Below are positions 18,749 through 48,233 of a DNA stretch of 64,000 bases, one piece after another. The position numbers were made by a program, and so were the translations under genes. The stretch lies in contig DATJPY010000014.1 of assembly GCA_035506135.1 (NCBI GenBank), positions 23,472 through 87,471 on the forward strand, read 5' to 3'. Numbering within the stretch: position 1 is the first letter of the stretch; each line of letters opens with the position of its first letter. The notes under the pieces were generated by a model. The model ran no database searches, was not told the DNA's origin, and was given only the letters and a program-made list of their open reading frames with translations. The stretch is from Myxococcota bacterium. Its GTDB lineage: Bacteria; Myxococcota_A; UBA9160; PR03.

Positions 18749-19198
18749 ATGCGACGGCTCGAGTCGAACGCACGCGTTCGTTCCGCCGGTTCTCTGCAAA
18801 GCGCGGTGGGGCTTCGCTCCCGCGCCTGGCTCGGCGTCGCCGCCCTCCTGCTCCAGCTCGCCCTTCCCTTCCTCCATTCTCTGGAGATCCGCCTCGCATC
18901 CGCCGAGGCGTCGCCCCTGGGCGCAGACGCGCACAGTCCGTCTCGCGCGCTCGACCCGACCCCTGGCGCGCGCGGGATCTCGGCCGTACCGGTCGCAGCG
19001 CACGACGAGCAGAACTGCCCGATCTGCGCCGCGCTCTCCCACGCTCACGCCGCGACCACGGATGCGGCTCGAGTCCCTGCGGCGTTCGAGTCTCGTCCGC
19101 TCGTCGTTTCGACCGAACGCAAGACCCCGCCGTTCCGGGACGTCGCGAGCCCTGACGCTCGCGCGCCTCCCTCCGCCTCGCGCATCGCCATCTCGTAG
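18749..19198 (+). CDS. small DUF2946-like Cys/His protein (paralog of 30994-31356)
   Basis: 149 aa from ATG 18749. It has an N-terminal hydrophobic segment (WLGVAALLLQLALPFL), a central AHDEQNCPICAALSHAH motif and a C-terminal ARAPP. It sits immediately upstream of a TonB-dependent receptor. Confidence 0.6.
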   Translation: MRRLESNARVRSAGSLQSAVGLRSRAWLGVAALLLQLALPFLHSLEIRLASAEASPLGADAHSPSRALDPTPGARGISAVPVAAHDEQNCPICAALSHAHAATTDAARVPAAFESRPLVVSTERKTPPFRDVASPDARAPPSASRIAIS

Positions 19199-19332: not shown

Positions 19333-21687
19333 ATGAGAGGCAGGAGGGGACTCTTCGCCCTGCTCTTCGCAGGGTGGTCGGCAGGCTTTGGCTTTTCGGG
19401 AATCGCGCTCGGCGACCCCGCGTCGCAGGGCTCCGTGGAGGGGCACGTCAAGGACGCCCTCGATCGGCCGCTCGCGGACGTGGCGCTGCGCCTCGAGGCG
19501 GCGGATGGGCACGTTGCCGGTCGCACCCAGACCGATGCGAACGGACGCTTCGCGTTCCACGGCGTCGACGCCGGGGTGTACTCCGTCGTCGGGGAGAAGA
19601 AGGACTTCGAGACCGCCACCGCCGTGGTAACCGTGAAGGCGGGCGAGGCGGCGCGATCGGAGCTGGTCCTCGCCTCGACGACGCCGCTCGACCTGAACGT
19701 CGTCGCTCAACGGCTCGACCAGCGCCGGGTGAACATCACGCCCGCGATCGGCGTGAGCCACTACGACATCACGCAGGACGCCATCCAGGACCAGGCCCAC
19801 GGCGACGATACGCCGTTCAATCAGGTCATCCTCCGTTCACCCGGGGTCGCCAACGACTCGTACGGTCAGCTGCACGTCCGCGGCGAGCACGCGAACCTCC
19901 AGTACCGCATCAACGGCATCCTGCTGCCGGGCGGCCTCACCGGCTTCGCCTCCACGCTCGACACCCGGATGGTGAGCAACGCGTCGCTTTTGACCGGCGC
20001 GCTTCCCGCGCAGTACGGCTACCGCACCGCAGGCGTCGTCGACATCCAGACGCAGGAGGGTACGCTCCAGCCCGAGGCGAGCCTCGGGATCTACGGCGGC
20101 AGCGACAGCTGGGTCCAGCCGCACTTCGAAGCGAGTGGCTCCTCGGGAATCTTCAACTACTTCGTCACCGGCGATTACATCCAGAACGATCGAGGTGTCG
20201 AGCCGCCGACTCCCAACGCCATCCACGACTACACACGGCAGGGAAAGGTCTTCGGACTCTTCTCCGCAGTACCCGACCCGTCGACGCGCGTGAGCCTCGC
20301 CGTGAGCGGCGCCATCGGCCACTTCGAGATTCCCAACAACCCGGGCCAGCCCACGGCCTTCTCCCTCGCCGGAGTCGACAGCTTCAACTCGAAGGACGTG
20401 AACGAGACCCAGCAGGAGATCAATCCGTGGGGGATCCTGGCGCTGCAGAAGTCACTGGGGCCGCTCGATTTCCAGATCGCCGCATTCAGCCAGTACAACG
20501 ACATCCGCTTCAACCCGGACAACACGCCAGACCTCCTCTTCAACGGCGTCGCGTCTCGCACCGAACGGAGCGTTTTCGAGAACGGGATCGAGGGCGACGG
20601 CAGCTACCACCTGAACGAGTCGCACACGCTGCGGGGCGGCTTCTTCTTCAGCGGCAGCCGCGCCGACACCAACAACACCTCGCGCGTCTTCCCCACCGAC
20701 GCGGCCGGGAACCAGAGCAGCGACGTCCCGATCGTGGTCACGGACGACACCAACAAGACGGCCTTTCTCTACGGCGTCTATCTGCAGGACGAGTGGAAGC
20801 TGCTCCCGCAGCTCACCATCAACGGCGGCCTCCGCTTCGACTACTACGACGGCTTCGTGAAGGAGTACCAGGCGAGTCCGCGCATCAACCTGGTCTACCG
20901 GCCGACCGAGACGACGACGCTGCACGCCGGCTACTCGCGCTACTTCACGCCGCCGCCGCTCGAGCTTCTCGCCAAGGACGGCTGCGACAAGTTCGCGAAC
21001 ACGACCAATGCCTGCGCGATCGACACCGGGATCAAGCCGGTCAACGTCGAGCGCGCCCACTACTTCGGTGTCGGGATCGTCCAACAGATCCTTCCCGAGT
21101 GGCGGGTGGGGCTCGACGGCTACTACAAGATTGCCCACAACCAGCTCGACGACGGCCAGTTCGGCGCGGCCCTGGTGTTCTCCCCCTTCAACTACGACAA
21201 GGGCTCGATCAAGGGCGTCGAGCTCACCTCCACCTACCAGCGCGGGAACTTCTCTGCCTACACCAACGCAGCCCTGTCGTACGCCCAGGGGCGGAAGATT
21301 ACGACCGCCCAGTTCCTGTTCGAGCCGGATGAATTCGAATACATCAGTCACCACTACGTCTGGCTGGACCACGACCAGCGCTGGAGCAGCACCGCGGGGG
21401 TCTCCTACGTCCTCTGGGGGACGCGGTTCTACGCCGAGAACATCTTCGGCAGCGGACTGCGCCAGGGCTTCGCGAACACGATGAAGATGCCCGTCTCCAA
21501 CCAGGTGAACCTCGGCGCCTCGCGCGATTTCGTGCTTCCGACGCTGGGTCGGTTCACGGCGCGCTTCGACATCGTGAATCTGTTCGACAAGCACAACCAG
21601 ATCCGCTCGGGCGAGGGGATCGGCGTCTTCGCCGCGCAGCGGGGGCCCGAGCGCGGCTTCTTCGGCGGGTTGACCAAACACTTCTGA
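19333..21687 (+). CDS. TonB-dependent receptor with N-terminal carboxypeptidase-regulatory-like domain
   Basis: 784 aa with a signal peptide. Regulatory-like domain: GRTQTDANGRFAFHGVDAGVYSV. Plug: FNQVILRSPGV...QLHVRGEHANLQYRINGILLP. A long Tyr/Gly/Asn-rich barrel ends ...LTKHF. Confidence 0.92.
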   Translation: MRGRRGLFALLFAGWSAGFGFSGIALGDPASQGSVEGHVKDALDRPLADVALRLEAADGHVAGRTQTDANGRFAFHGVDAGVYSVVGEKKDFETATAVVTVKAGEAARSELVLASTTPLDLNVVAQRLDQRRVNITPAIGVSHYDITQDAIQDQAHGDDTPFNQVILRSPGVANDSYGQLHVRGEHANLQYRINGILLPGGLTGFASTLDTRMVSNASLLTGALPAQYGYRTAGVVDIQTQEGTLQPEASLGIYGGSDSWVQPHFEASGSSGIFNYFVTGDYIQNDRGVEPPTPNAIHDYTRQGKVFGLFSAVPDPSTRVSLAVSGAIGHFEIPNNPGQPTAFSLAGVDSFNSKDVNETQQEINPWGILALQKSLGPLDFQIAAFSQYNDIRFNPDNTPDLLFNGVASRTERSVFENGIEGDGSYHLNESHTLRGGFFFSGSRADTNNTSRVFPTDAAGNQSSDVPIVVTDDTNKTAFLYGVYLQDEWKLLPQLTINGGLRFDYYDGFVKEYQASPRINLVYRPTETTTLHAGYSRYFTPPPLELLAKDGCDKFANTTNACAIDTGIKPVNVERAHYFGVGIVQQILPEWRVGLDGYYKIAHNQLDDGQFGAALVFSPFNYDKGSIKGVELTSTYQRGNFSAYTNAALSYAQGRKITTAQFLFEPDEFEYISHHYVWLDHDQRWSSTAGVSYVLWGTRFYAENIFGSGLRQGFANTMKMPVSNQVNLGASRDFVLPTLGRFTARFDIVNLFDKHNQIRSGEGIGVFAAQRGPERGFFGGLTKHF

Positions 21688-21722: not shown

Positions 21723-22370
21723 GTGCACGACCTGACCAACCTCTGGACCGCCCTGCAGGCGGGCGGCGCAGCGATCTATCCACTGCTCGGATTGGCCGTC
21801 GTCGCGGCGGTCGTCATCGTCGAGAAGGGCTTCGTCTACGCGACGAGGACCCACCTCTCGCCGAAGCTGGTCCGGACGATCGAGAGCGGCGCCTTCAAGT
21901 GGAGCGAGCTCGAGCAGCAGCTCGCCGACGTGAACCCCAGGCTCTACGCAGGCCGGTTCCTTCGCGTGCTGGTCCAGAGCCGGCGGCAGCCCGGATGGTG
22001 GGTGGAGTCGCGCGCGGGAGACGAGGCGAGCGTCATCGAGAAGGCGCTCGGGCGTTGGACCTGGGTGCTCGAGACGATCGTGACGGCGGCGCCGCTGCTC
22101 GGGCTGCTCGGCACCATCACCGGCATGATCCGCTCCTTCCGGCTCTTTGGCGATCAGGGACTCGTCGACCCGGCGGGTGTCACCGGAGGGGTCGCGGAGG
22201 CGCTGATCGCGACCGCGGTGGGGCTCTTCATCGCCCTCGCGGCGCTCTTCGCGTTCAACTTCTTCTCGCAGCGCCGCGCCCAGTTGATGGACGAGCTCGA
22301 GCGGCTCGGCACGCGGCTGGTCGACCGCATCCGGCTCGATCAGGAGGGCTTCTTCGATGAAGCTCCGTAG
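21723..22370 (+). CDS. exbB: MotA/TolQ/ExbB proton channel family protein
   Basis: 215 aa. APLLGLLGTITGMIRSF and GVAEALIATAVGLFIA motifs. Confidence 0.9.
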   Translation: MHDLTNLWTALQAGGAAIYPLLGLAVVAAVVIVEKGFVYATRTHLSPKLVRTIESGAFKWSELEQQLADVNPRLYAGRFLRVLVQSRRQPGWWVESRAGDEASVIEKALGRWTWVLETIVTAAPLLGLLGTITGMIRSFRLFGDQGLVDPAGVTGGVAEALIATAVGLFIALAALFAFNFFSQRRAQLMDELERLGTRLVDRIRLDQEGFFDEAP

Positions 22371-22758
22371 ATCGCGGACCTCGCGGCGCGGGCGCATCGA
22401 GATCATCCCCATGATCGACGTGATGTTCTTCCTGCTCGCGACCTTCATGCTTGCGTCGCTCTCGATGCAGCACTTGCATTCGCTGGGGATCAACCTTCCG
22501 AAGGGCCGCGCTGCGGCGATGGACACGCGAAGCCCGATCACGCTCACCGTGACGCGCGACGGGCAGCTGCTGCTGAACGAGGTCGCGATCACCCTCGACA
22601 CGCTCGAGCCCGCGCTGCGACCGCTACTGGGCGACTCGGAGACGAGCGTCGTGGTTGCGGCGGACGGCGCTGCACCGCACGGCCTGGTGGTCCAGGCGAT
22701 GCTCAAGGCACGCGAGGCCGGTGCCGAGCATTTCTTGATCGCGGTGCAGCACGAGTAG
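22357..22758 (+). CDS. exbD: biopolymer transporter ExbD/TolR
   Basis: 133 aa. The start overlaps exbB. IEIIPMIDVMFFLLATFML TM segment plus a periplasmic domain. Confidence 0.9.
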   Translation: MKLRRSRTSRRGRIEIIPMIDVMFFLLATFMLASLSMQHLHSLGINLPKGRAAAMDTRSPITLTVTRDGQLLLNEVAITLDTLEPALRPLLGDSETSVVVAADGAAPHGLVVQAMLKAREAGAEHFLIAVQHE

Positions 22759-22761
22759 AGC

Positions 22762-23442
22762 GTGGCCGACTCGATCCGCCTCGACGACGGGCCCTGGAGA
22801 CGACTCCCGTGGTCGCTCCCTGGCGGAGCGCTGCTGACGCTGCTCGCCCTGATGGGGCTCGTCCGGATGCTCGCCGAGTCCCCGCCGCAGCGAGAGAAGC
22901 CGCCCGCCCTCAGCGCACAGCTCCTGGAGCTCCCAGCGCCCGGACCCGCCGCTTCCGCCGCGCCCGCGCCGCCCGAGCCAGCGGCCCCCGCACCGCCGCC
23001 CGACCTCGTCACCCCGAAGCCGCCCGAGCCGTTGCCACCGCGGCCTCGCGAGCGAAGGCCGCCGGCGCCGAAGCCGGCGGAATCTTCGGCGCCCGCCAGC
23101 GCCGCTCCTTCCGCGACCGCATCCCGTGAAGCCGCAGTCCCGTCGAGCGCCGGCGGTCCGTCCCTGCCCGGCGGGCGCATGAGCGCGCGCGCCCTCTATC
23201 AGCCGGTGCCCGAGATCCCGGAGGAGCTGCGGCGCGAGAACCTCCAGGCGGTCGCCCTCGCCCGCTTCCGCGTGGCCGCCGACGGCAGCGCGCAGGTCGA
23301 GCTGGTCCGGGCCACGAACGACACGCGGCTGAACCAGGCGCTGCTCGCCGCCCTCAGGCGCTGGCGATTCTTCCCCGCGATGGAGCAGGGCCGGCCGGTC
23401 GACTCGGAGCTCGAGATCCGGGTTCCGATCTCGGTCCGCTGA
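22762..23442 (+). CDS. tonB: energy transducer TonB
   Basis: 226 aa. TM anchor, Pro-rich spacer (PEPAAPAPPPDLVTPKPPEPLPPRP) and a TonB C-terminal domain (LNQALLAALRRWRFFPA). Confidence 0.9.
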   Translation: MADSIRLDDGPWRRLPWSLPGGALLTLLALMGLVRMLAESPPQREKPPALSAQLLELPAPGPAASAAPAPPEPAAPAPPPDLVTPKPPEPLPPRPRERRPPAPKPAESSAPASAAPSATASREAAVPSSAGGPSLPGGRMSARALYQPVPEIPEELRRENLQAVALARFRVAADGSAQVELVRATNDTRLNQALLAALRRWRFFPAMEQGRPVDSELEIRVPISVR

Positions 23443-23512: not shown

Positions 23513-25633
23513 ATGATCGCGTTCCTGACCGCATGGCTGAGCGAGACGGCGAACGTCCTCTACGAGGGCTCCCTCTACGTCCTGCTCGGCTTCCTGGTCG
23601 CCGGGGTCCTCCACGAGTTCCTGCCGACCTCGATCATCACGCGCCACCTCGGCCAGGAGCGCCCGCGCTCGGTCGTGCTCGCGGCGCTGTTCGGCGCGCC
23701 CATCCCGCTCTGCTCGTGCGGCGTGCTGCCCGCCGCCGCGGCGCTGCGACGCAAAGGCGCGAGCCGCTCCGCCCTGATGGCGTTCCTGATCTCCACGCCC
23801 GAGACCGGCGTCGACTCCATCGCGCTGACCTGGGGCCTCCTCGGTCCGCTGATGGCCGTGGTGCGCCCGCTCGTCGCCATCGCGACCGGCATCGCCGCCG
23901 GTGTGGGCGGTCTCTTCGTGCGCGACGACGTCGAAGCGAACGCGACGGTGCCGCTCCCGGCGCTGGCACAGGATCACGAGCATGCGACGGGTGCAGACGC
24001 GGCCGACGAAGCTGGGAGGCCGTGGACCGATCGGCTGCGCGCGGGCGTGGCGTACGGCTTCGGCCCGCTGCTCGACGAGATCGCCTTCTGGCTCGCGGTC
24101 GGCTTCGCGCTGACGGGCCTGCTCGCGGCGCTGCTCCCGAACGATTTCTTCTCGGCCGTGCTCGGCTGGGACCGCGGCCTCCTGCCGATGCTTGCGATGG
24201 CGCTCGCGAGCGTGCCGCTCTACCTCTGCGCGAGCGCCTCGACGCCGGTCGCTGCGGCGCTGGTCGCGAAGGGCCTCTCGCCGGGCGCCGCGCTGGTCTT
24301 CCTGCTGGTGGGGCCCGCGACCAACGCCGCGACCCTGAGCGTCGCGCGCCAGCTCCTCGGCGCGCGGCGGCTGCGCATCTACGTCCTCACCGTGCTCGCG
24401 TTCTCGATCGCCGCCGGCCTCGCGCTCGATCCGCTCGCGGGCGACACCATTCGGGCGTCGACGCTGGGCGCGGCCCGGCTGCCCGAGCGCGGGCTCCCGG
24501 CGTTCGCGAAGCTCCTGGCGGCGATCGCCTTCGGCGCCCTGCTGGCTCGGAGCTTCGCGCGCACCCGCTTCCGCGAGGGGCGCCGCGATGCCGCCGACCA
24601 GATCCACCGCCTCCGCGCGGCGCTCGCGGGCTTCGACCCCCGCGCGCTGCTCCGGCCCCCGGTGCTGGCCGCGCTCGCGGCGCTGCTGCTCGCGCTCCTG
24701 CTACCGCGCATGGTGCTGGTCGTCGGGCCCGGCCAGCGTGGGGTCGTGCAGCGCTTCGGGCGCCTGGTGGCGGGCGACCTCCCGCCCGGGCTCCACCTGC
24801 ACTGGCCGGCGCCGCTCGGGCGCGGCGTGGCCGTCGACGTCGACTGGGTGCGGCAGCTCACCGTCGGCTTCCGCGGGAACCCCGCGGACGTGCGCGTCAG
24901 CATGGGCGACGAGGCGTTCTACCTCACCGCCGACGAGAACCTGATCGACATCCGCTCCGTCGTCAGCTACCGCGTTCGCGACCCCGCGCGCTTCGCGCTC
25001 GGCGTGGAGAACCCCGACGCGGTGATCGGCGCCCTGGCCCGGGACGTGCTGGTGCGCATCGCCACCGCGCAGACCATCGACGCCATCTACGCGACGGGGC
25101 GCCTCGACGTCGAGCGCGCCTGGCGCGAGGCGCTCGGCCGCGAGGTCGAGGCGCTCGGAATCGGGGCCGAGCTGGTCGACGCGCGGCTGCTCGACGTGCA
25201 CGCGCCGGAGGGCGTGCACGACGCCTTCCGGGACGTGGCGAGCGCCGTCGAGGATCGCGAGCGCGAGATCCACGACGCGAACGGATACGGCGCCGAGCGG
25301 CGCAACCAAGGCGCGGGCGAGTCCGCGACGCTGGTCGAAGCCGCGCGCGCCGAGGCCACGCGCGTCGCGAAGCAGGCGGCGGGCGACGCCGCCGCCTTCG
25401 CCGGCCTCGCCGCCGTCGACGCCGAACACCCCGCCGTGACCGAGGAGCGCCTGTGGCTCGAGTCGCTCGAGCGCACGCTCCCCGCGCCGCGCAAGTTCAT
25501 CCGCGCCGCGGGCAACGCCGGCGACGTCGACCTCTGGGTGGGCAATCCGCCGCCCGGCGGGCTGCCCGCCCTCTCCCTGCCCGCGGCCCCGCCGATCGGA
25601 CCGCCCGCCGCGAAGGAGCCCGCCACGCCATGA
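23513..25633 (+). CDS. fusion protein: COG0701/ArsP_1-type (SO_0444-like Cu/Zn) permease plus HflK-like SPFH (band 7) domain
   Basis: 706-aa uninterrupted ORF. The N-terminal half is a multi-TM permease with APIPLCSCGVLP and a His/Asp loop AQDHEHATGADAADE. The C-terminal half carries VVGPGQRGVVQRFGR, YLTADENLIDIRSVVSYRVRDP, APEGVHDAFRDVASAVEDRER and ERLWLESLERTL, typical of HflK. Confidence 0.8.
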   Translation: MIAFLTAWLSETANVLYEGSLYVLLGFLVAGVLHEFLPTSIITRHLGQERPRSVVLAALFGAPIPLCSCGVLPAAAALRRKGASRSALMAFLISTPETGVDSIALTWGLLGPLMAVVRPLVAIATGIAAGVGGLFVRDDVEANATVPLPALAQDHEHATGADAADEAGRPWTDRLRAGVAYGFGPLLDEIAFWLAVGFALTGLLAALLPNDFFSAVLGWDRGLLPMLAMALASVPLYLCASASTPVAAALVAKGLSPGAALVFLLVGPATNAATLSVARQLLGARRLRIYVLTVLAFSIAAGLALDPLAGDTIRASTLGAARLPERGLPAFAKLLAAIAFGALLARSFARTRFREGRRDAADQIHRLRAALAGFDPRALLRPPVLAALAALLLALLLPRMVLVVGPGQRGVVQRFGRLVAGDLPPGLHLHWPAPLGRGVAVDVDWVRQLTVGFRGNPADVRVSMGDEAFYLTADENLIDIRSVVSYRVRDPARFALGVENPDAVIGALARDVLVRIATAQTIDAIYATGRLDVERAWREALGREVEALGIGAELVDARLLDVHAPEGVHDAFRDVASAVEDREREIHDANGYGAERRNQGAGESATLVEAARAEATRVAKQAAGDAAAFAGLAAVDAEHPAVTEERLWLESLERTLPAPRKFIRAAGNAGDVDLWVGNPPPGGLPALSLPAAPPIGPPAAKEPATP

Positions 25634-26532
25634 GAATGCTGCTCGCCCTGGTCGCCGTCGCTCTCGCGGCGGCCGCGCTCGTCTCGTCGATCGTGGTGGT
25701 GGACGAGACCGAGCATGCCGTGATCACGCAGTTCGGCCGCCCGGTCGCCGTGATCAGCGAGGCGGGAGCGCACATCAAGCTCCCCGCGCCCATCCAGCGC
25801 GCCACCTTCCTCGACAAGCGGATCCTCCTGAGCCAGCTCCCGCAGACGGAGCTGCTGACCGCGGACAAGAAGAACATCGTCGTGTCGACCTATGTCGCGT
25901 GGCGCATCGCCGACCCGCTGAAGTTCCTCTCCGCGCTGCGCTCGCGCGACTTCGCCGAGGCGCGGCTCGCCGCGCTCGTGCAGTCGGAGCTCGGCTCGAC
26001 GCTGGGGAGCCAGCCCTTCTCGAGCATCGTCCCGGCGGCGGCCGGAGGCACGAACTTGAAGCAGGTCGAGGAGCGCGTCGCGAGCGCCGCTCGCGAGGTG
26101 GCCGCGCGCGACTTCGGGATCGAGGTGACGAGCGTCGGCGTGACCCGCCTCGGCTACCCGGCGCAGAACCTCCAGAGCGTCTTCGCGCGCATGCGCGCCG
26201 AGCGCGAGCGCATCGCGCGTGGCTATCGCTCCGAGGGCAAGGCCGAGGCCCAGAAAATCCGCGCCGAAGCGGATCGCGAGCGCACGACGCTGCTCGCCAA
26301 CGCCGAGGCGGAGGCGGCCCGGCTCCAGGGCGAGGGCGAGGCGGAGGCCGCGCGCGTCTACGCCGACGCCTATCGCGGGCACGAGGACTTCTATCGCTTC
26401 CTCCGCACGCTGCAGGCGTACGAGAAGACGCTGAAGGACAACACCACGCTGGTGCTGCCGGCCGACTCGCCCTTCCTCGACCTCCTGCTCTCGCGGACGC
26501 CGGGCGGCCACGCTGCGGGCGCGGGTCGCTAG
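25630..26532 (+). CDS. HflC-like SPFH domain protein
   Basis: 300 aa. ATG 25630 overlaps the upstream stop (ATGA). HflC-type motifs: VVVDETEHAVITQFGRP, LLTADKKNIVVSTYVAWRIADP, QSVFARMRAERERIARGYRSEGKAEAQKIRAEADRE and FYRFLRTLQAYEKTL. Confidence 0.85.
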   Translation: MRMLLALVAVALAAAALVSSIVVVDETEHAVITQFGRPVAVISEAGAHIKLPAPIQRATFLDKRILLSQLPQTELLTADKKNIVVSTYVAWRIADPLKFLSALRSRDFAEARLAALVQSELGSTLGSQPFSSIVPAAAGGTNLKQVEERVASAAREVAARDFGIEVTSVGVTRLGYPAQNLQSVFARMRAERERIARGYRSEGKAEAQKIRAEADRERTTLLANAEAEAARLQGEGEAEAARVYADAYRGHEDFYRFLRTLQAYEKTLKDNTTLVLPADSPFLDLLLSRTPGGHAAGAGR

Positions 26533-26535
26533 CGG

Positions 26536-27468
26536 ATGGAAGGCCGCCGCCGTTGGGGCTCCGGCCGACTCGGCCGACTGCTGCGCTGGGGCGTGGCGCC
26601 GCTCGCCGCTGCCGCGTACCTCGGCTCCGGCTTCTACAGCGTCCAGACCGACGAGAGCGCCGTCGCCTTCGTGCTCGGCCGGGCGGTCGGGCGCGACGAG
26701 CTCCCGGGCATGCACTGGAACCCGCCCTGGCCGTTCGGGCGCGTCCTCGTCGAGAAGACGGCCACCAACTTCACGATGCCGATCGGCTATCGCCTGGTCG
26801 ATCGCCCGGGCGAGCCGCCCATCTCGGACCTGTGGCTCACGGGCGACACCAACGAGATCACGGCCCGGCTCGACGTCCAGTACAGCGTGCGAAGCCTGAC
26901 CGATCTCGCGCTGGCCCACGAGGAGCCGCGGGAGCTCCTGCGGCGCGGCGGCGAGCGCGTGCTGTCGCGCTTCCTGGTCAGCGAGAACGTCGACGCCGCG
27001 ATCACCACGAAGCGGGCCGAGCTCCAGGACTTCGTGCGCCGCGAGCTGCAGGCGCTGCTCGACGCGGACGGCGTCGGGATCCAGGTGCAGGCGGTGAGCA
27101 TCAAGGAGCTCGCACCTCCGATCGAGGGCCAGGTCCGCAGCGCCTTCCAGGAGGTGCAGAACGCGAGCGCGGACCGCGAGCGCAGCATCTCGGAGGCGCG
27201 CGCCTACGAGGCGCAGGTGCTCGCCGAGGCGCAGGGCGACGCCCAGCGCCGCCTCTCCGACGCGACCGCGACCCGCTACCGCCGCATCGAGGTGGCCTCC
27301 GGCGAGGCCGATCGCTTCCAGGCGCTGGCGCGCGAGCACGACCGCGCGCCCGCGCTGACCGAGCAGCGCCTCTACCTCGAGACGCTCGAGCGCCTGCTGC
27401 CGGGGCTCCAGACCTACGTGGTCGAGCCCGCGAAGGACGGCAAGGTGAACCTGCGGATCGTCCGGTGA
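26536..27468 (+). CDS. HflK-like SPFH domain protein
   Basis: 310 aa, starting 3 nt after the previous stop. YSVQTDESAVAFVLGR, WLTGDTNEITARLDVQYSV, PPIEGQVRSAFQEVQNASADRER and EQRLYLETLERLL motifs. Confidence 0.85.
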   Translation: MEGRRRWGSGRLGRLLRWGVAPLAAAAYLGSGFYSVQTDESAVAFVLGRAVGRDELPGMHWNPPWPFGRVLVEKTATNFTMPIGYRLVDRPGEPPISDLWLTGDTNEITARLDVQYSVRSLTDLALAHEEPRELLRRGGERVLSRFLVSENVDAAITTKRAELQDFVRRELQALLDADGVGIQVQAVSIKELAPPIEGQVRSAFQEVQNASADRERSISEARAYEAQVLAEAQGDAQRRLSDATATRYRRIEVASGEADRFQALAREHDRAPALTEQRLYLETLERLLPGLQTYVVEPAKDGKVNLRIVR

Positions 27469-28385
27469 GGCGCCCGCTCCTGGCGATGGGGGCCGCGCTG
27501 GCCGGACTCGCAGCGGTGGCGAGCGCCGCCACCGCGCCGACACCGATTCGCGTGGTCGCGACGATCCAGCCGATCGCGATGCTCGTGCGCGAGCTGGGCG
27601 CCGGTCGCGTCGCCGTGACGAGCCTGGTGCCGCCCGGCGCCAGCCTCCACACCTTCGCGCCGAGGCCCGGTGACGTCGCGGCGGTCGAGGAGACCGGACT
27701 GTTCGTCGAGGTGGGAGCCGGGCTCGACACCTGGGCCGCGAAGCTCGAGAACGCCGCCGCGAGCCGGCCCGAGCGGCTGGTGCTGATCGAGCTCCCGAGC
27801 CTCGATCCCCTGCCGGCCGATCCTCGCGAGCACGGCCACGACGCCGCCGGCGCGCGAGCCCGCTTCGATCCACATGTCTGGCTGGACCCCATCCGGGTCC
27901 GCGACGTGGTCGCGCCCGCTCTGGTCGCTGCGCTCGTCCGCATCGATCCAGGCGGACGCGCCGAGTACGACACGGCGCTCGCGGCGCTGCGTGCGCGCAT
28001 CGACGAGCTCGACGCGGAGATCCGGCGCACGCTCGAGGGACACGGGACGAAGTTCGTGGCCTTCCACGGCGCCTGGCGCTACTTCGCCGCCCGCTACGGC
28101 CTCGAGGAGATCGGCGTGGTCGAGGAGGCGCCGGGCGAGGAGCCGGCACCCCGCGAGATCGCGAGGCTCGTCGAGGCGGCGCGCGCGGCGCACGTCCCCG
28201 CGATCCTGACCGAGCCGCAGCTCAATCCGCGCATCGCCGCGACCATCGCCGCCGAGCTCGGCGCCGGAACCGTGACGGTCGACGAGCAGGGCGACCCGCG
28301 CGACCCCGAGCGCGCCGACTACGTCGCCCTGATGCGCTTCGACGCGCGCGCGTTCGCTCGCGCGTTGGGGAACGGCGCGCCGTGA
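27465..28385 (+). CDS. znuA: metal (probably zinc) ABC transporter substrate-binding protein, ZnuA/TroA family
   Basis: 306 aa. GTG 27465 overlaps the upstream stop (GTGA). Signal peptide, predicted metal-ligand His positions (SLHTFAP, DPHVWLDP, FHGAWRYF) and a short His/acidic loop (PREHGHDA). Confidence 0.85.
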   Translation: MRRPLLAMGAALAGLAAVASAATAPTPIRVVATIQPIAMLVRELGAGRVAVTSLVPPGASLHTFAPRPGDVAAVEETGLFVEVGAGLDTWAAKLENAAASRPERLVLIELPSLDPLPADPREHGHDAAGARARFDPHVWLDPIRVRDVVAPALVAALVRIDPGGRAEYDTALAALRARIDELDAEIRRTLEGHGTKFVAFHGAWRYFAARYGLEEIGVVEEAPGEEPAPREIARLVEAARAAHVPAILTEPQLNPRIAATIAAELGAGTVTVDEQGDPRDPERADYVALMRFDARAFARALGNGAP

Positions 28386-29155
28386 GCGGTGACCCCGTCG
28401 TGCGCCTCGCGGGCGTGTCGGTCGAACGGCAGGGGCGCCGCGTGCTCGAGGACATCAGCTTCTCGCTCGACGCGGGTCACTTCCTCGGTGTCGTCGGCCC
28501 GAACGGCGCGGGCAAGACGACCCTCCTGCGCGCGATGCTCGGACTGGTGCCGATCGCGGCGGGTCGCATCGAGGTGTTCGGGCGCCCGCCCGGCGGCGCC
28601 TCGCCCGAGGTCGGCTATGTCCCGCAGCGCCACGCGGTCGCGGCGTCGTTTCCCGCCACGGTGCGCGACGTGGTGATGATGGGCCGGCTGCGGCGGCTCG
28701 GCTGGCTCGAGCGCCCGCGCGCTGCGGATCGCGAATCGGTCGCGCGCAGCCTCGCGCGGGTCGGCATGCAGGACCGCGCCGAGCGGCCGATCGGACGCCT
28801 CTCGGGCGGCGAGCAGCGCCGGGTGATGCTGGCGCAGGCGCTGTGCTCGAGCCAGCGCCTGCTGGTGCTCGACGAGCCGACGATCGGGCTCGACCTGCCG
28901 GCCGAGCAGGCCTTCTACGCGCTCCTGCGCTCGCTCAAGGAGGAGCTCGGGCTCACCGTGATCGCGGTCTCGCACGACCTCGTCGCCCTCGCGGCCGAGG
29001 CCGACGAGCTCGTCTGCATCAACCGCAGCATGCACGTCCACGGGAACCCGGAGGACGTCGTGCACAGCCACGCCCTGCGCGAGGCCTACAGCTGCGAGTT
29101 CAACTTCCTGGCCGGCGAGATCGCGCATCACGAGCGCATCGGGCGCGAGCGCTGA
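28382..29155 (+). CDS. znuC: metal ABC transporter ATP-binding protein
   Basis: 257 aa. Walker A GPNGAGKTT, signature LSGGEQRRV and Walker B LLVLDEPT. The start overlaps the znuA stop (GTGA). Confidence 0.88.
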   Translation: MSGDPVVRLAGVSVERQGRRVLEDISFSLDAGHFLGVVGPNGAGKTTLLRAMLGLVPIAAGRIEVFGRPPGGASPEVGYVPQRHAVAASFPATVRDVVMMGRLRRLGWLERPRAADRESVARSLARVGMQDRAERPIGRLSGGEQRRVMLAQALCSSQRLLVLDEPTIGLDLPAEQAFYALLRSLKEELGLTVIAVSHDLVALAAEADELVCINRSMHVHGNPEDVVHSHALREAYSCEFNFLAGEIAHHERIGRER

Positions 29156-29160
29156 TGCTC

Positions 29161-29204
29161 GCCGCGGAGCCCTCCGGTGATTGCCGCGGAGCCCTCCGGT
29201 GATT
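29161..29204. repeat. perfect 22-bp tandem duplication (GCCGCGGAGCCCTCCGGTGATT x2) covering the znuB RBS and start codon
   Basis: Read directly from the sequence: 29161-29182 and 29183-29204 are identical. Each copy contains GGAG followed by GTG. Confidence 0.95.
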
Positions 29205-29996
29205 GAGTTCGCCTTCATGCAGCGCGCGCTCGCCGCCGCGGTGCTGGTCGGGGTGGTGTGCGGCGCCCTCGGCTTCTTCGTGGTGCTCCGGAGGCTCGCG
29301 TTCATCGGCGTCGGCATCTCGCACTCCGCCATCGGCGGCGTGGCGATCGGCGTGGTGGCGGGCGTCTCGCCGCTGCTCACCGCCGCGGTCTTCGCCGTTG
29401 CGGTGGCGCTCGGCATCGCCGCGGTGGGACGCCGCAGCGCGCTCTCCGAGGACGCCGTGATCGGCGTCTTCTTCTCCGGTTCGATGGCGCTCGGCGTGGT
29501 GCTCTTCAGCCTGCAGCGCGGCTACCAGCAGGACCTGTTCGGCTACCTGTTCGGCGACGTGCTGGCGATCTCGGGGCGCGAGCTCGCGACGCTCGCGGCG
29601 GCGACCGCGCTAGTCCTGATCGCCCTGGCCTTCGCGTTCCGACGGCTCTTCTTCATCGCCTTCGACGAGGAGATCGCACAGGCCTACGGACAGCCGGTGG
29701 GGCTGCTCAACACCGCCCTCCTCGTCCTGCTCGCCCTCACCATCGTGATCGGCGTCCGGCTGGTGGGTGCCATCCTGGTCGAGGCGCTCCTGGTGATCCC
29801 GGCCGCCTGCGCCGCGCTCTGGGCGAGCGGCTGGCGGGCCCAGCTCGTGCTGGCGACCGGCCTCGGCGCCGCCAGCGGGGTGCTCGGGCTCGCGCTCGCC
29901 TACTGGCTCAATCTCGCCGCAGGGGCCAGCATCGTGCTGGTCTCGGCCGGCCTCTTCTTCGCCTCCCTGGCGCTCCGGCGCGGCGGACCGGCGTGA
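29199..29996 (+). CDS. znuB: metal ABC transporter permease (ABC-3, ZnuB-like)
   Basis: Track ORF 29181-29996 begins at TTG. GTG 29199 ([18 protein letters not shown]...) sits 7 nt after GGAG and matches the usual ZnuB N-terminus. Multi-TM. Confidence 0.88.
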
Positions 29997-30115: not shown

Positions 30116-30421
30116 ATGGCGAAGACGTCGCAGGTCCACCGCGAGCTCAAGCGCAAGGCGCTGATCGCGAAGCATGCCGCGAAGCGCGCGGAGCTCCGCA
30201 AGCGGCTCAAGGATCCCGAGGCCTCGATCGACGACAAGTTCGCCGCTCAGCTCGAGTTCTCCAAGCTCCCGCGCAACTCCTGCCCGACCCGCAAGAAGAA
30301 CCGCTGCGGCGTGACCGGCCGGCCGCGCGGCTATCACCGCAAGTTCGGAATCTCGCGCATCGCCCTGCGCGAGCTGGCGCTCGCGGGCCAGCTCCCGGGC
30401 GTGCGGAAGTCGAGCTGGTAG
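30116..30421 (+). CDS. rpsN: 30S ribosomal protein S14, long non-zinc-ribbon (C-) form, likely alternative paralog
   Basis: 101 aa. [28 protein letters not shown] ... [34 protein letters not shown]. It lies outside any ribosomal operon and next to zinc transporters. Confidence 0.9.
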
Positions 30422-30423
30422 CC

Positions 30424-30669
30424 GTGAAGGAAGGCGTCCACCCCGACTACCACAAGGTGATCTTCGTCGACAGCGCGACCGGGACGGAGTGGATCACGCG
30501 ATCGACGCTCACGTCCTCGGAGACGCGCGACGTCGACGGCGAGGCGGTGCCGCTGGTGCGGCTCGAGATCTCGTCGGTGAGCCATCCCTTCTGGACCGGT
30601 CACCTGCGCGAGGCCGCGCGCGGCGGCAAGGTCGACGACTTCCGCCGCCGCTACGGCAAGAAGAAGTAG
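30424..30669 (+). CDS. rpmE2: 50S ribosomal protein L31 type B (no Cys, zinc-independent)
   Basis: 81 aa. VKEGVHPDYHKVIFVDSATG...LEISSVSHPFWTG...GKVDDFRRRYG. There are no cysteines at all, as in type B L31. Confidence 0.9.
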   Translation: MKEGVHPDYHKVIFVDSATGTEWITRSTLTSSETRDVDGEAVPLVRLEISSVSHPFWTGHLREAARGGKVDDFRRRYGKKK

Positions 30670-30680
30670 CGAGGACGACG

Positions 30681-30986
30681 ATGCCCCGGCACTGCGCGCT
30701 CACCGGAGCCACCGTGCGCTACGGAAACAACGTCTCGCACTCCAACCGCCGGACGAGTCGAACCTTCGCGCCGAACCTGCAGCGCGCCTCGCTGATCTCG
30801 GACGCGCTGCGCCGCACGGTGCGCCTGCGCGTGACGACGCGCGCGCTGCGCAGCGTGCAGAAGCACGGCGGCCTCGACGCCTTCCTGCTCGACACGCCCG
30901 ACGCGCGACTCGGTGCGGAGGGGCTCGAGCTGAAGCGCCGCGTGCTCCGCGTGCTCGCCGGCCGGCGGAAGGCGAAGGCAGGCTGA
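30681..30986 (+). CDS. rpmB: 50S ribosomal protein L28
   Basis: 101 aa. MPRHCALTGATVRYGNNVSHSNRRTSRTFAPNLQ...VRLRVTTRALRSVQKHGGLDAFLL. Confidence 0.88.
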   Translation: MPRHCALTGATVRYGNNVSHSNRRTSRTFAPNLQRASLISDALRRTVRLRVTTRALRSVQKHGGLDAFLLDTPDARLGAEGLELKRRVLRVLAGRRKAKAG

Positions 30987-30993: not shown

Positions 30994-31356
30994 GTGCGGC
31001 GGATCGCGAGCGCAGCCCTCGTCTCCGCCGCGCTCCTCGCGAGCCCCTCGCTCCACCACCCCGCCGACGAGCCCCTCGCGGCGCCGGCGATCTCGGCCCA
31101 CGCATTCGCCCCGGAGCTCTGCTCGGACCGCGAGCGCTCGGCGCCGCACGACCACGAGCTCTGCCGGATCTGCCGGGCCACCGCCCAGGCGCGCCTCGCG
31201 CTGCGCGTGCCCGCACGCCTCTCGACGCCCTTCCTCGAGGGAGCAGGACGGCTCCCGCTCCAGGCTTCCGCCTCCACGGCGCCGACCGCGGAGCCCGTCC
31301 TCTCGGGCTGCGCTCCGCGCGCTCCGCCCGGCGTCCTCTCCGCGCTCGAAGCCTAG
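30994..31356 (+). CDS. small DUF2946-like Cys/His protein (paralog of 18749-19198)
   Basis: 120 aa with a GTG start 7 nt after rpmB. N-terminal hydrophobic segment, central PHDHELCRICRATAQA motif and C-terminal PRAPP. Confidence 0.6.
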   Translation: MRRIASAALVSAALLASPSLHHPADEPLAAPAISAHAFAPELCSDRERSAPHDHELCRICRATAQARLALRVPARLSTPFLEGAGRLPLQASASTAPTAEPVLSGCAPRAPPGVLSALEA

Positions 31357-31454: not shown

Positions 31455-32744
31455 GTGGACGTCCATCGAACGGGGACCCTGTCGGTCCTCGCGCTGCTGC
31501 TCGCGGCCGCACCGCGCCTCGCGCTCGCGGCCCAGACCGACGCGGAGCTCGCCGCGGTCAAGGCCGAGCTCACGCAGACCCAGAACGAGCTCGCCGCGAC
31601 GCGAGCGCAGCTCGCCGTCACCCAGAGCGCGCTCTCGAAGCTCTCGACCAAGGTCGAGGCGCTCGAAGCCGCCGGACCGCAGGCGGCCGCCGCGCCCGAG
31701 CCGAGCGGCCCGCGCATCCCGCCCGTGAACGCCGACAACCCGGCCATCAGCTTCGTGGTCGACACCACGCTCTCCGCCGACACGGAGGACCAGGGCTGGA
31801 ACTTCGCCCTGCGCAGCGGAGAGCTCTTCATGTCGGCGCCGGTGGATCCCTTCGTGCGCGCCTTCGCCACGATCAACGGATCGAGCACCGACGGCTTCGA
31901 CATCGAGGAGGCGGCGATCGTCACGACGTCGCTGCCCTGGAACCTGACCCTCAAGGGCGGCCGCTTCTTCGCCGACGTCGGGCGCATGCCGCACTGGCAC
32001 GACGAGGCGCTGCCCTTCGTGAACCGCCCGCCGTCGATCGACCGCATGTTCGGAGGCGAGACCCAGGCGGAGGGTGCCGAGGTCACCTGGCTGGCGCCGA
32101 CCGAGCACTTCATCCAGGTGAACGCTGGCATCTACAACACGATCGGGGCCGACAACAACGAGCAGCTCCGCGAGGAGGGGTTCCACGGCTACCGCGCCTT
32201 CGACGAGCTCACCTGGCTGGTGCACCCGAACACCTACTTCGACCTCACCGACACGGTGAACCTGGAGGTCGGCGGCACCTACTTCACGGTGGCGCAGAAC
32301 AACCAACGCGACCTCTACGGAGTGGACGTCACGCTGCGCCACCAGCCGGGCACGAGCGGCGCCTACCAGGGCCTGGTCCTCGGCACCGAGTGGTACTGGA
32401 ACAACGAGCGGTTCGCGGACGTGCCGCTGGGCTTCGATCCCGCGACCGGCGAGCAGCGGACCGGCAACCACCGCTACGACCGGAACGGCGGCTACGCCTA
32501 TCTCGAGACCTTCTGGAACCGCCGCTACTCGTTCGGCGTGCGCGCCGACTTCGCCGAGGACATCCAGGGCGGCGCGCGCAGCCAGCGCACCTACTCGGCC
32601 TTCGCGACCTGGATGCCGTCCGAGTTCCAGCGGATCCGCCTCCAGTTCGACGAGATCACCGGGAACGTCAACGAGAATCAGCAGGTCACGCTCCAGTGGA
32701 CCGCCTTCATGGGGAGTCATTCGCATGGCTTCGCGATGCGCTGA
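31455..32744 (+). CDS. putative outer-membrane beta-barrel (porin-like) protein with N-terminal coiled coil
   Basis: 429 aa. Signal peptide (LALLLAAAPRLALAAQ), then a heptad-like segment (AELAAVKAELTQTQNELAATRAQLAVTQSALSKLSTKVEALEAA). The rest has alternating aromatic/Gly/Asn/Asp beta-strand-like composition and a His-rich end, GSHSHGFAMR. Confidence 0.65.
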   Translation: MDVHRTGTLSVLALLLAAAPRLALAAQTDAELAAVKAELTQTQNELAATRAQLAVTQSALSKLSTKVEALEAAGPQAAAAPEPSGPRIPPVNADNPAISFVVDTTLSADTEDQGWNFALRSGELFMSAPVDPFVRAFATINGSSTDGFDIEEAAIVTTSLPWNLTLKGGRFFADVGRMPHWHDEALPFVNRPPSIDRMFGGETQAEGAEVTWLAPTEHFIQVNAGIYNTIGADNNEQLREEGFHGYRAFDELTWLVHPNTYFDLTDTVNLEVGGTYFTVAQNNQRDLYGVDVTLRHQPGTSGAYQGLVLGTEWYWNNERFADVPLGFDPATGEQRTGNHRYDRNGGYAYLETFWNRRYSFGVRADFAEDIQGGARSQRTYSAFATWMPSEFQRIRLQFDEITGNVNENQQVTLQWTAFMGSHSHGFAMR

Positions 32745-33672
32745 GCTCGTCCTGGCCGGCCTCGTCTGGCTGGCCCTCGCGCTTCCCGCGCAGGCCGCGA
32801 TCAGGGTGGTGGCGTCGACGCCCGAGGTGGCCGACATGGCGCGCCAGATCGGGGGCGACCGCGTCGAGGTGGTGACGATCGCCGAGGGAAGCCAGGACCC
32901 CCACAAGGTCCCGGTGAAGCCGAGCTTCGTCACCAAGCTCAACCGCGCGGACGCACTGATCGTGAACGGGCTCGGCCTCGAGCATGCCTACATCCCGGCG
33001 CTGCTCGAGGTGGCGAGCAATCCCAAGATCCTGCCGACGGGACCCGCCTACATCGACGCGTCGATCTACATCCAGCCGCTCGAGGTGCCGACCAGCCAGA
33101 ATCGAGCGCAGGGCGAGCTGCACCCGCTCGGCAACCCGCACTTCAGCATGGATCCGGTGCGCGGCAAGCTGATGGCGAAGGCGATCGCGGAGGGGCTGGC
33201 CCGCGTCGATCCGGGCGGCGCCGCGGCGTATCAGGACGGGCTCGCGCGCTTCACCGCCCTGCTCGACCGCAAGATCGCGGAGTGGCAGCAGCTCGCGGCG
33301 CCGCTGCGCGGTGTGAAGGCGGTCTCGTACCATCAGGACCTGATCTACCTGGCGGACCGCTTCGGCCTCGACATGGTCGGGACGATCGAGACCAAGCCCG
33401 GGGTGCCGGCGACGCCGGCGCATCTCGAGGAGCTGATCGACACCATGCGGCGCGAGCAGGTCAAGCTGGTGATCCGCGAGATCGCCTACGAGCTCCCGCT
33501 CGCGCAGAAGGTGGCCGACGAGACCGGCGCGCGGGTGGTCACCATCTCGAGCCTGGCCGGAGGCCTCGGCACGACGACCTACGTCGACTTCGTCGAGGCC
33601 AACCTGCGGGCGCTCGTGGCCGGCGTGCAGGGAGCGCCGGCCGCGCCCGCACACGCCGGCGCGCCGGGCTGA
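32725..33672 (+). CDS. metal ABC transporter substrate-binding protein, ZnuA/TroA family (second copy)
   Basis: 315 aa. The start overlaps the barrel gene by 20 nt. Signal peptide LALALPAQAA and conserved His positions (QDPHKVP, NPHFSMDP, SYHQDLIYL). Confidence 0.85.
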   Translation: MASRCAELVLAGLVWLALALPAQAAIRVVASTPEVADMARQIGGDRVEVVTIAEGSQDPHKVPVKPSFVTKLNRADALIVNGLGLEHAYIPALLEVASNPKILPTGPAYIDASIYIQPLEVPTSQNRAQGELHPLGNPHFSMDPVRGKLMAKAIAEGLARVDPGGAAAYQDGLARFTALLDRKIAEWQQLAAPLRGVKAVSYHQDLIYLADRFGLDMVGTIETKPGVPATPAHLEELIDTMRREQVKLVIREIAYELPLAQKVADETGARVVTISSLAGGLGTTTYVDFVEANLRALVAGVQGAPAAPAHAGAPG

Positions 33673-33675: not shown

Positions 33676-34329
33676 ATGGACCAGCCGCTGCTGCGCGTCG
33701 AGGGCGCGGCCTTCGGCTACGCGGGGCGCCCGGTGGTGCAGGGCGCGTCGCTCGAGGTGCGGCCGCGCGAGTTCGCAATCCTGGTCGGCTCCAACGGCAG
33801 CGGGAAGACGACGCTCCTGCGCGGGCTGCTCGGCTTCCTGCCGCCGCTGGCCGGCCGGGTCGAGCGCCGGCCCGGCCTCCGCATCGGCTACGTGCCGCAG
33901 CGCGAGACACTCGATCCGCTGTATCCGCTCTCGGCCGCCGACGTGGTGCTCCTCGGCGCCTGGCGCGACCTCCCCTTCTGGCGCTTCTCGGGGGCGCGCG
34001 AGCGGACCCGCGCGCGGGAGGCGCTCGACGCCTGCCGCGCGAGCGGCTTCGCGCGCCAGCGCTACGCCGAGCTCTCGGGCGGCCAGCGCCAGCGCGTGCT
34101 GCTCGCGCGTGCGCTCGCCACCCAGCCGGAGCTCCTGCTGCTCGACGAGCCGACCGCGGGCGTCGATGCCGAGACCGAGCGCGGCCTGCTCGATCTCCTC
34201 CACGATCTCTGCCACGAGCGTGGGCTCGCGATCTGGATGGTCACGCACCACGTCCAGGCCGTCGGAACGCGGAGCGATCGCATCGTGTCCGTCTCCCACG
34301 GACGCGTCCACCTGGGCCGCGCCGCATGA
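33676..34329 (+). CDS. metal ABC transporter ATP-binding protein (second copy)
   Basis: 217 aa. Walker A GSNGSGKTT, signature LSGGQRQRV and Walker B LLLLDEPT. Confidence 0.88.
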   Translation: MDQPLLRVEGAAFGYAGRPVVQGASLEVRPREFAILVGSNGSGKTTLLRGLLGFLPPLAGRVERRPGLRIGYVPQRETLDPLYPLSAADVVLLGAWRDLPFWRFSGARERTRAREALDACRASGFARQRYAELSGGQRQRVLLARALATQPELLLLDEPTAGVDAETERGLLDLLHDLCHERGLAIWMVTHHVQAVGTRSDRIVSVSHGRVHLGRAA

Positions 34330-47992: not shown

Positions 47993-48233
47993 GATGCTTC
48001 CCCCAAAATCCGCGCTCCGGCGCGACGCCGGCCGGGCGCGACTCGACACCCTCGAGGCTGCTTCCTGGGTACACAGCAGCGTGCCGACCGACCGCCTGGG
48101 AACGGAGGCACGGCACGAAACACACCCGGCGCCGATTCTCGCACATGGACCGGCGGCGCGAAGGGGTTTTGTTGGACGCCCGGTAGAATTCGCTGAGATT
48201 CTCCCCCGCGGGGCTCCCATTTCTTCCAGTCGC

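Follow-up and report, generated by a model that had tools for sequence, protein, structure and literature searches.

A Cu/Zn-type permease fused to an HflK-like SPFH subunit in a conserved three-gene bacterial cassette

We analysed a 64,000-nucleotide stretch of a Myxococcota bacterium (contig DATJPY010000014.1, positions 23,472 to 87,471 of the forward strand; hereafter the window, with positions counted from its first letter). The gene under study joins a Cu/Zn-type permease to an HflK-like SPFH subunit in a single reading frame. It is followed by an HflC-like and by a second, unfused HflK-like gene, and we name the three-gene module K1-C-K2 (fusion, HflC-like, HflK-like). The fusion is genuine and ancient, and K1-C-K2 is an autonomous, widely conserved module in which C and K2 are obligate partners. 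Sequence and modelling make it very probable (about 0.85) that the products form an SPFH assembly with a built-in permease, and the most economical reading is that this permease is the client of the SPFH proteins.

The first-pass annotation had proposed that K1 holds two modules in one frame and that an HflC-like and then a second HflK-like gene follow. Profile searches bore this out, with all of the coordinates correct. The K1 open reading frame (ORF) runs unbroken from 23513 to 25633 on the + strand and encodes 706 residues. The parts of the module are as follows.

23513..24565, + strand: K1 N-terminal module (residues 1-351), SO_0444/ArsP_1-type permease with nine predicted transmembrane (TM) helices (Pfam, NCBIfam, AlphaFold2)
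24566..24712, + strand: K1 junction, a basic cytoplasmic linker with an amphipathic helix (residues 352-381) and an HflK-type membrane anchor (residues 382-400) (hydropathy, charge count, AlphaFold2)
24713..25633, + strand: K1 C-terminal module (residues 401-706), HflK-like SPFH domain and long coiled coil, predicted to be periplasmic (Pfam, NCBIfam, Foldseek)
25630..26532, + strand: C, HflC-like SPFH subunit of 300 residues with an N-terminal TM helix at residues 6-24 (TIGR01932, PDB search)
26536..27468, + strand: K2, unfused HflK-like SPFH subunit of 310 residues (Band_7 43.2 bits; hflK 143.5 bits, cut-off 159.4)

Pfam ArsP_1 (PF03773) matched K1 residues 18-304 with 130.8 bits (cut-off 32.3), and NF033936, the model of the SO_0444 family Cu/Zn efflux transporter, matched residues 14-345 with 333.9 bits, above its curated equivalog cut-off of 300. 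In the second half, Pfam Band_7 matched residues 403-589 with 64 bits and TIGR01933 (hflK) matched residues 402-665 with 147.2 bits, slightly short of its 159.4-bit cut-off. The K1 translation does contain the motifs APIPLCSCGVLP and AQDHEHATGADAADE.

An AlphaFold2 model of K1, built as a single chain with 102 sequences (mean predicted local distance difference test score 85.8, predicted template modelling score 0.66), gave a permease of two four-helix repeats, each with one helix broken at an invariant Cys motif: TM2 at PLCSC (residues 65-69) and TM6 at PLYLC (residues 235-239). C67, C69 and C239 were invariant in the 102 fused proteins, and P65-L-C67-S-C69 and P235-L-Y-x-C239 were 100% conserved. 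Between the repeats lies an acidic, His-containing loop (residues 135-170) that is disordered in the model; the equivalent loop carries at least three His or at least three Cys in 75 of the 102 relatives. After the permease the model places, in order, TM9, an amphipathic helix, the anchor at residues 382-400, the SPFH domain and a 70-residue coiled coil, with the helices at the junction spanning residues 354-373 and 382-400. Hydropathy and charge counts found 10 Lys or Arg within the 40-residue stretch 346-385 ahead of the anchor. From this and from helix counting, a periplasmic location is predicted for the SPFH domain, the N-terminus of the permease and the His/Asp loop. Within the linker R350 is invariant and an RTRFREG-like motif is conserved (alignments of 21 and of 102 proteins). 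The best Foldseek matches of K1 were Escherichia coli HflK chains (7vhq_E, 9cz2, 9paw and 7wi3_B, E 3e-13 to 4e-10), matched by the C-terminal half. The anchor, SPFH domain, coiled coil and cap fold of HflK were all visible in the model, and the charges around the anchor fit an N-in orientation. The structure search found no solved relative of the permease family.

The C subunit was matched by TIGR01932 (hflC) with 200.3 bits against a cut-off of 134.4, and its closest solved relative in the PDB was E. coli HflC (E 2.7e-40), with HflK reaching only 2e-7. K2 was assigned an HflK-like fold from its sequence similarity. The gene junctions read exactly as had been claimed: the C start overlaps the K1 stop in ATGA at 25630-25633, a 3-nt gap (26533-26535, in TAG-CGG-ATG) separates the C stop from the K2 start, and the znuA GTG overlaps the K2 stop in GTGA at 27465-27468. 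Read from these junctions, the K1-C-K2 block is predicted to be translationally coupled to znuACB in the window.

The earlier annotation had asked whether an insertion or deletion might have created the fusion. A 99%-identical protein of 706 residues, evidently the same gene, was present on two other ENA assemblies, where its neighbours kept their order, and orthologues ran uninterrupted across the junction. Both Pfam domains were found in all 120 best database relatives (48-99% identity, about 700 residues), and more than 120 clusters at 90% identity showed the two-domain length. In a representative library at 50% identity, 1494 proteins matched at E <= 1e-30; 112 of the best 150 representatives had at least 600 residues, and most of those matched both halves. 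At the 50% level the fusion is represented in about 100 clusters, spread over at least eight phyla. The junction itself (ninth TM helix, basic linker, HflK-type anchor) was conserved across the alignments of 21 and 102 proteins.

A genome scan, with one genome per species, gave 40 loci with the fused gene. They came from "Deltaproteobacteria", Myxococcota, Binatia, Eiseniibacteriota and Acidobacteriota/Holophagales metagenome-assembled genomes (MAGs), as well as from MAGs of Gemmatimonadota, Rokuibacteriota, Planctomycetota and Tectimicrobiota and MAGs labelled Spirochaetales; no cultured organism was seen among the carriers. With the window proteins as tblastn queries, a C-like gene followed K1 in 39 of 39 loci and a K2-like gene came next in 36 of the 36 loci with enough DNA; order and strand were constant in all loci compared. 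When the start codon closest to the upstream stop was taken, C and K2 lay at most 10 nt apart in all 35 loci measured, and K1 and C in 27 of these 35. An SPFH neighbour was absent from every locus of an unfused permease homologue that we examined (0), and the SO_0444-HflK fusion was not found in a plasmid collection. One gene counted as unfused (L049, 8001-9347; L numbers denote the loci compared) matches query residues 4-457 and runs into the contig end; most probably it is a fused gene cut short there. We dropped the idea of a single fusion origin: monophyly of the fused permease domains received 0 of 100 bootstraps in the tree, so that neither a single fusion event nor a functional divergence of these domains can be claimed.

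The window cassette, which would form an HflK/C-type SPFH assembly with a covalent transporter, belongs to a broader, undescribed cassette family. On a plasmid of Aquibium oceanicum, a gene annotated 'hflK' encodes a Cation_efflux (CDF) membrane domain fused to Band_7, in the order CDF-HflK, HflC, HflK, peptidyl-prolyl isomerase (PPIase), heavy-metal ATPase. The fused module is the six-TM Cation_efflux domain without its cytoplasmic domain. This CDF-HflK fusion was found in at least 120 clusters, including Rhizobium sp. AN80A and Kouleothrix, and was seen in Alphaproteobacteria and Chloroflexi; the proteins are annotated solely as 'FtsH protease activity modulator HflK'. The order K1-C-K2-PPIase recurred at every inspected locus (L083 6212-12039; L084, L086 and L096-L098), with CopCD, DUF305, PCuAC-like, SCO1, MerR and ArsR genes as neighbours and also DsbA, YkuD and Peptidase_M23.

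In a further type, which we call the ATPase type, K1 is long and its polytopic N-terminal region of about 250-300 residues matches no Pfam family; C, K2 and a gene for a short P-type ATPase (P1B-type) come after it. This cassette occupies L088 4835-10847, L089 5085-10811, L094 6048-12021 and L095 6022-12082; its carriers are plasmids of Burkholderia and Klebsiella as well as the species Pseudomonas abieticivorans and Metapseudomonas otitidis. By database names it is also present in Enterobacter hormaechei, Salmonella enterica, Citrobacter and Kosakonia. The cassette of M. otitidis (L095) adjoins a TonB-dependent receptor (TBDR) gene and znuABC. A comparison by hhalign showed no similarity between the N-terminal region of the ATPase-type K1 and the profile of the permease.

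In a neighbour-joining tree, the C subunits of the SO_0444-type and CDF-type cassettes formed one clade to the exclusion of canonical HflC (94/100), and the CDF sequences branched within it; the cassette C subunits were sister to canonical HflC (joint clade 99/100). The window C subunit is 43% identical to that of Aquibium and 30-38% identical to canonical HflC. The ATPase-type subunits are 17-31% identical to those of the window and branch outside the SO_0444/CDF clade. A single K1 lineage with exchanged transporter domains was considered and dropped at 19/100 bootstrap; only the C-subunit clade is solid.

Zinc-starvation gene content is present around K1-C-K2 in the window: two znu sets, a TBDR with exbBD-tonB, and extra S14, L31 and L28 genes. 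The neighbouring features are listed below.

19333-21687, + strand: TBDR (Pfam)
21723-22370, + strand: ExbB (Pfam)
22357-22758, + strand: ExbD (Pfam)
22762-23442, + strand: TonB (Pfam)
27465..28385, + strand: ZnuA-type periplasmic metal-binding protein (Pfam ZnuA 225.5 bits)
28382..29155, + strand: ZnuC-type ABC ATPase (ABC_tran 100 bits; AztA, ZnuC and MntA-like matches all below cut-offs)
29181..29996, + strand: ZnuB-type ABC-3 permease (ABC-3 230.6 bits)
30116-30421, + strand: extra ribosomal protein S14 (Pfam Ribosomal_S14)
30424-30669, + strand: extra ribosomal protein L31, without Cys (Pfam Ribosomal_L31)
30681-30986, + strand: extra ribosomal protein L28 (Pfam Ribosomal_L28)
31455-32744, + strand: 429-residue protein with no Pfam match (Pfam scan)
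32725-33672, + strand: ZnuA2 (Pfam scan)
33676-34329, + strand: ZnuC2 (Pfam scan)
34326-35762, + strand: ZnuB2 with a C-terminal extension (Pfam scan)

The tonB and K1 genes are 70 nt apart, and the order TBDR-exbBD-tonB is repeated on a near-identical twin contig (L091). The S14, L31 and L28 copies sit outside any ribosomal operon, as is characteristic of zinc-starvation regulons, and the same block follows znuACB in L004. No NCBIfam model reached its equivalog cut-off for the ZnuA at 27465-28385, and its specificity for Zn or Mn is thus putative. Genes for znuABC, a TBDR and zinc-free ribosomal paralogues are the typical content of a Zur (zinc-starvation) regulon.

Three smaller proteins or protein parts in this region were also recorded. 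ZnuB2 (478 residues) matches ABC-3 only at residues 11-273 and carries a fused C-terminal extension of about 200 residues. A small, secreted-looking DUF2946 protein (18749-19198, + strand; 28.9 bits, cut-off 23.7) is encoded just upstream of the TBDR gene at 19333, and another small, secreted-looking protein with no Pfam match (30994-31356, + strand) just upstream of the gene at 31455 for the 429-residue protein, which is of outer-membrane type. The proteins of 18749-19198 and 30994-31356 have the motif H-D-x-x-x-C-x-I-C in common (motif-region alignment E 0.004).

The K1 block had also been described as wired into znuABC. This stands for the window and its closest clade, where znuACB lies directly downstream (the window, its twin L091, L001, L003-L006, L081 and L093), and does not extend further. 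One member, L004, repeats the whole order of the window including S14-L31-L28, the 429-residue protein and ZnuA2. Outside this clade the cassette stands alone or after a ZIP gene, and the remaining neighbours vary; what is conserved is K1-C-K2, not the full order to znuABC. A His-rich ZIP gene lies immediately upstream, on the same strand, in 11 other fused loci (Planctomycetota, Gemmatimonadota and unclassified MAGs), often overlapping the K1 start. A gene for a thioredoxin-fold or SCO1-like periplasmic protein recurs upstream of fused cassettes. Regulators differ between fused and unfused loci: adjacent to the unfused SO_0444-type permeases we found 16 ArsR-family and 5 MerR-family regulators (21 of 40 loci), whereas 41 fused loci and the window together held one ArsR-like gene.

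That gene (L024, 6803-7081, in a Gemmatimonadota MAG) heads the order ArsR-like, ZIP, K1, C, K2, and would argue for control by metal excess at that locus. Four loci (L018, L022, L027 and L031) have an extra HflC-like gene and an acetamidase/formamidase gene (FmdA_AmdA) directly upstream of the cassette; they were recovered with Rokuibacteriota MAGs, L027 being labelled Acetobacteraceae. Genes for Mrp/NBP35-type (ParA/NUBPL) P-loop ATPases lie near the cassette in L093 (4594-6826), two such genes occur among the neighbours of fused loci, and a gene of this type also adjoins the canonical hflKC of Tistrella (L082, 5187-6377).

Published work on two systems bears on these observations. SO_0444 of Shewanella owes its designation as a Cu/Zn efflux protein to fitness defects seen with ZnSO4 and CuCl2 and to the ZntR-like gene beside it (PMC3219624). 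In Pseudomonas aeruginosa, the HflK/HflC-like genes PA2439-PA2437 were induced 9- to 14-fold together with hmtA in a znuA mutant (PMC4542158), the PA2437-PA2439 proteins increased in zinc-depleted proteomes (PMC11761036), and Zur bound the PA2439 promoter in a gel shift (10.1101/2021.05.28.446167). A 2026 study of SPFH proteins in P. aeruginosa, with knockouts of nine genes, included PA2439-PA2437 as PaFlo5-7; it reported no clear phenotype and did not draw the zinc link. PA2437-PA2439 are absent from a zinc-homeostasis review. In the literature searched we found no description of a permease-SPFH or CDF-SPFH fusion. The earlier suggestion that the system is undescribed thus stands for the fusion, with partial precedents in PA2439-PA2437 with HmtA and in stomatin-AQP1.

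A link of the module to zinc limitation appears likely (about 0.6 to 0.65) because znuACB seems to be coupled to it, ZIP genes precede it in 11 loci, TBDR, exbBD-tonB and S14/L31/L28 genes surround it in the window, and the ArsR/MerR association is nearly lost. By homology to E. coli HflK/C and by topology counting, K1, C and K2 may assemble into a ring or vault with periplasmic SPFH domains. The permease would then be held as a client in, or at the wall of, an enclosed membrane patch, and the unfused K2 would act as a spacer between the bulky K1 subunits. Gene context suggests that in this genome the module is co-expressed with znuACB in the zinc-starvation response. The K1 permease is complete, with a thiolate site at Cys67, Cys69 and Cys239. 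If it transports in the family direction, out of the cytoplasm and into the periplasm, then Zn (or Cu) would be released into the space enclosed by the vault, and envelope metalloproteins would thereby be supplied in a protected way even as ZnuA and ZnuBC deplete the periplasm at large.

Export of metal into the SPFH enclosure is tentative, at a little under even odds (about 0.45). We favour it because of the family polarity and the need for SO_0444 under Zn or Cu excess, because the fused permease domains have not diverged from the unfused ones, and because the transporter modules found in such cassettes all belong to exporter families (SO_0444, CDF, P1B ATPase). The periplasmic partners, a foldase (the PPIase) and thioredoxin-fold/SCO1-like proteins, point the same way, and a vault gives a reason for enclosing a periplasmic volume.

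Several results weigh against this reading. An exporter co-transcribed with a high-affinity importer would be unusual, all conserved neighbours of the fused cassette are importers and so favour uptake, and HmtA, the ATPase of the Pseudomonas cassette, is reported as an importer. The P. aeruginosa proteins are themselves equated with the ATPase type by gene order and through Pseudomonas/Metapseudomonas relatives, not by the PAO1 sequences. CDF-type cassettes occupy copper or metal-stress contexts and not zinc-starvation contexts, so that one function may not fit all cassette types. K1 and K2 score below the curated HflK cut-off (147.2 and 143.5 bits against 159.4) and are HflK-like, not equivalogs by NCBI's rule, and the relationships among K1, K2 and canonical HflK received bootstraps of 19-26/100. 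The regulatory searches belong here as well. No Zur box was found in the 200 nt upstream of K1 in nine loci, in searches made without a lineage-specific consensus. No inverted repeat common to the candidate promoter regions of the window was found, and no zur, ArsR or MerR gene was found in the window. A whole-window scan for AT-rich palindromes returned a single one at 45668-45686, unrelated to the K1 locus. Zinc regulation of the block is therefore read from its gene content.

The near-perfect palindrome at 45668-45686, GAACATCTGGAAGATGTTC, lies inside a long ORF (44996-48049, - strand) and is the sole one of its kind in the 64-kb window. A scan for sigma-70 promoters and terminators from 18.3 to 36 kb gave nothing beyond shuffled expectation.

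The first-pass annotation had favoured a dedicated metal microdomain with the permease as client. The built-in client is supported; an uptake role is not established, since the permease family is annotated as efflux and the fused domains are not a separate clade. In such an uptake microdomain the fused permease would import Zn(II) from the periplasm beside ZnuABC or ZIP, and the SPFH ring would cluster the uptake machinery or hold metal near its entry. The recurrent neighbours (znuACB, ZIP, TBDR, exbBD-tonB) are all uptake parts, and K2 seems translationally coupled to znuA. The loss of the ArsR/MerR association seen in unfused efflux homologues fits uptake too, as do the predicted periplasmic acidic loop, His- or Cys-rich in 75 of the 102 relatives, and the reported direction of HmtA in the analogous operon. 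K1, however, scores above the equivalog cut-off of an efflux family and its permease domain does not separate from unfused homologues in the tree, the CDF and P1B ATPase modules of the sister cassettes come from exporter families, and the uptake reading leaves unexplained what use an importer would have for a vault in the periplasm or, in the sister cassette, for a PPIase. On balance we regard uptake as a serious but unlikely alternative.

Proteolytic control is less probable still. K1-C-K2 would here be a specialised HflK/C that recruits FtsH, and the cage would set the lifetime of the tethered permease, for instance by removing it when zinc returns. Enclosing and modulating FtsH is the sole established biochemical role of HflK/C (PDB 7wi3, 9cz2; PMC12048511), the C subunits are sister to canonical HflC, and a cytoplasmic linker with an invariant Arg is conserved. 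The absence of ftsH from the window, as had been noted earlier, was confirmed: no FtsH signature (HExGH[A/T], GPPGTGKT) occurs in any frame, although ftsH may lie elsewhere in the genome. The families that recur next to the cassettes include no Peptidase_M41, the alignment position of the Arg through which HflK is reported to contact FtsH is not clearly conserved (the residue numbering being ambiguous), and the PPIase and thioredoxin-fold neighbours would be left unexplained. FtsH-coupled turnover is compatible with the other models and does not exclude them.

An artefact or coincidence, namely a frameshift, an assembly error or a housekeeping hflKC pair beside a permease, might be suspected in a single assembled sequence of an uncultured, very GC-rich organism (GC 0.63-0.78 across the inspected DNA of the window, so that long spurious ORFs abound), but it is refuted by the independent assemblies, the relatives and the conserved junction described above, together with a third-position GC of 0.94-0.96 in the K1 ORF, three SPFH genes where a housekeeping locus has two, and C subunits that stand apart from canonical HflC (94/100), and we give it practically no weight.

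Bacterial SPFH proteins are widespread, and their clients beyond HflK/C-FtsH are mostly unknown. Here the covalent fusion names the client, a Cu/Zn permease or, in the sister family, a CDF domain, which makes the role of an SPFH cage for its client directly testable. The finding joins three separate observations: the SO_0444 efflux family, the Zur-induced SPFH triplet by HmtA, and transporter-bearing proteins annotated as HflK. It also gives a starting point for understanding a part of the Pseudomonas Zur regulon that has lacked an explanation, and the ATPase-type cassette bears on nutritional immunity through its occurrence in Pseudomonas, Enterobacter, Salmonella and Klebsiella. Database names need correcting, as 'SO_0444 family Cu/Zn efflux transporter' and 'FtsH protease activity modulator HflK' each cover half of the protein. 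If the enclosure does partition scarce zinc or copper for the envelope, this would be a new principle of metal allocation. A broader and speculative proposal, which we think improbable as it stands, is that K1-C-K2 cassettes represent a general and hitherto unrecognised kind of bacterial device. An exporter of thiophilic metals, either built in or encoded next to the cassette, would feed an HflK/C-type vault that faces the periplasm, and exporter modules would have been acquired on at least three occasions (SO_0444, CDF, P1B ATPase). The vault would serve as a private compartment for metallating or folding envelope proteins, with Zn in starvation and Cu in the CDF/PPIase version. If true, it would explain the Zur-regulated PA2437-PA2439 and the odd 'importer' phenotype of HmtA.

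Among known systems, the E. coli HflK/HflC-FtsH complex (7vhp/7vhq, 7wi3, 9cz2, 9paw) likewise has HflK- and HflC-type subunits encoded side by side, and each subunit has an N-terminal anchor, a periplasmic SPFH domain, a long coiled coil and a C-terminal cap. Its chains are the best structural match of K1 and the best sequence match of C. The cassette differs in having three subunits instead of two and a nine-TM permease on K1. K1 and K2 lie below the HflK cut-off, the C clade is separate from canonical HflC, and the hfq-hflX context and a nearby ftsH are lacking. Shewanella oneidensis SO_0444 resembles the first 345 residues of K1, which score above the family equivalog cut-off and keep the Cys-broken helices. 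It is, however, a stand-alone protein of about 350 residues whose operon also encodes a ZntR-like regulator and which the cell requires when Zn or Cu is in excess, whereas the K1 permease is fused to an SPFH subunit, has no ArsR/MerR neighbour and lies among zinc-uptake genes.

The P. aeruginosa operon PA2439-PA2438-PA2437(-PA2436)-PA2435 (hmtA) also combines three SPFH genes in K/C/K-like order with a Cu/Zn transporter. Its expression rises on zinc depletion, and Zur binds the PA2439 promoter; here a zinc link is suggested by gene content. Its transporter is a separate P-type ATPase, and no P-type ATPase is encoded at the K1-C-K2 locus of the window; the K1 N-terminus in its relatives is polytopic, about 300 residues long and without ArsP_1 similarity. 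As judged from these sequences, the window cassette appears to be analogous and distantly related to the PA2439-PA2435 type, and not a member of it. The CDF-type cassette is closer, with the same K1-C-K2 order, a metal-transporter module on the K1 N-terminus and C subunits that cluster with those of the SO_0444 type (94/100). Its fourth conserved gene encodes a large PPIase, however, and its neighbours are copper or metal-stress genes and not znuABC. Finally, eukaryotic stomatin (AQP1-stomatin, PDB 9zd2) and bacterial SPFH-NfeD (QmcA-YbbJ, 8z5g) also pair an SPFH oligomer with a specific membrane partner, but that partner is non-covalent and has no link to metal transport, and the oligomers are homo-oligomeric where those of the cassette would be K/C hetero-oligomers with the transporter built in.

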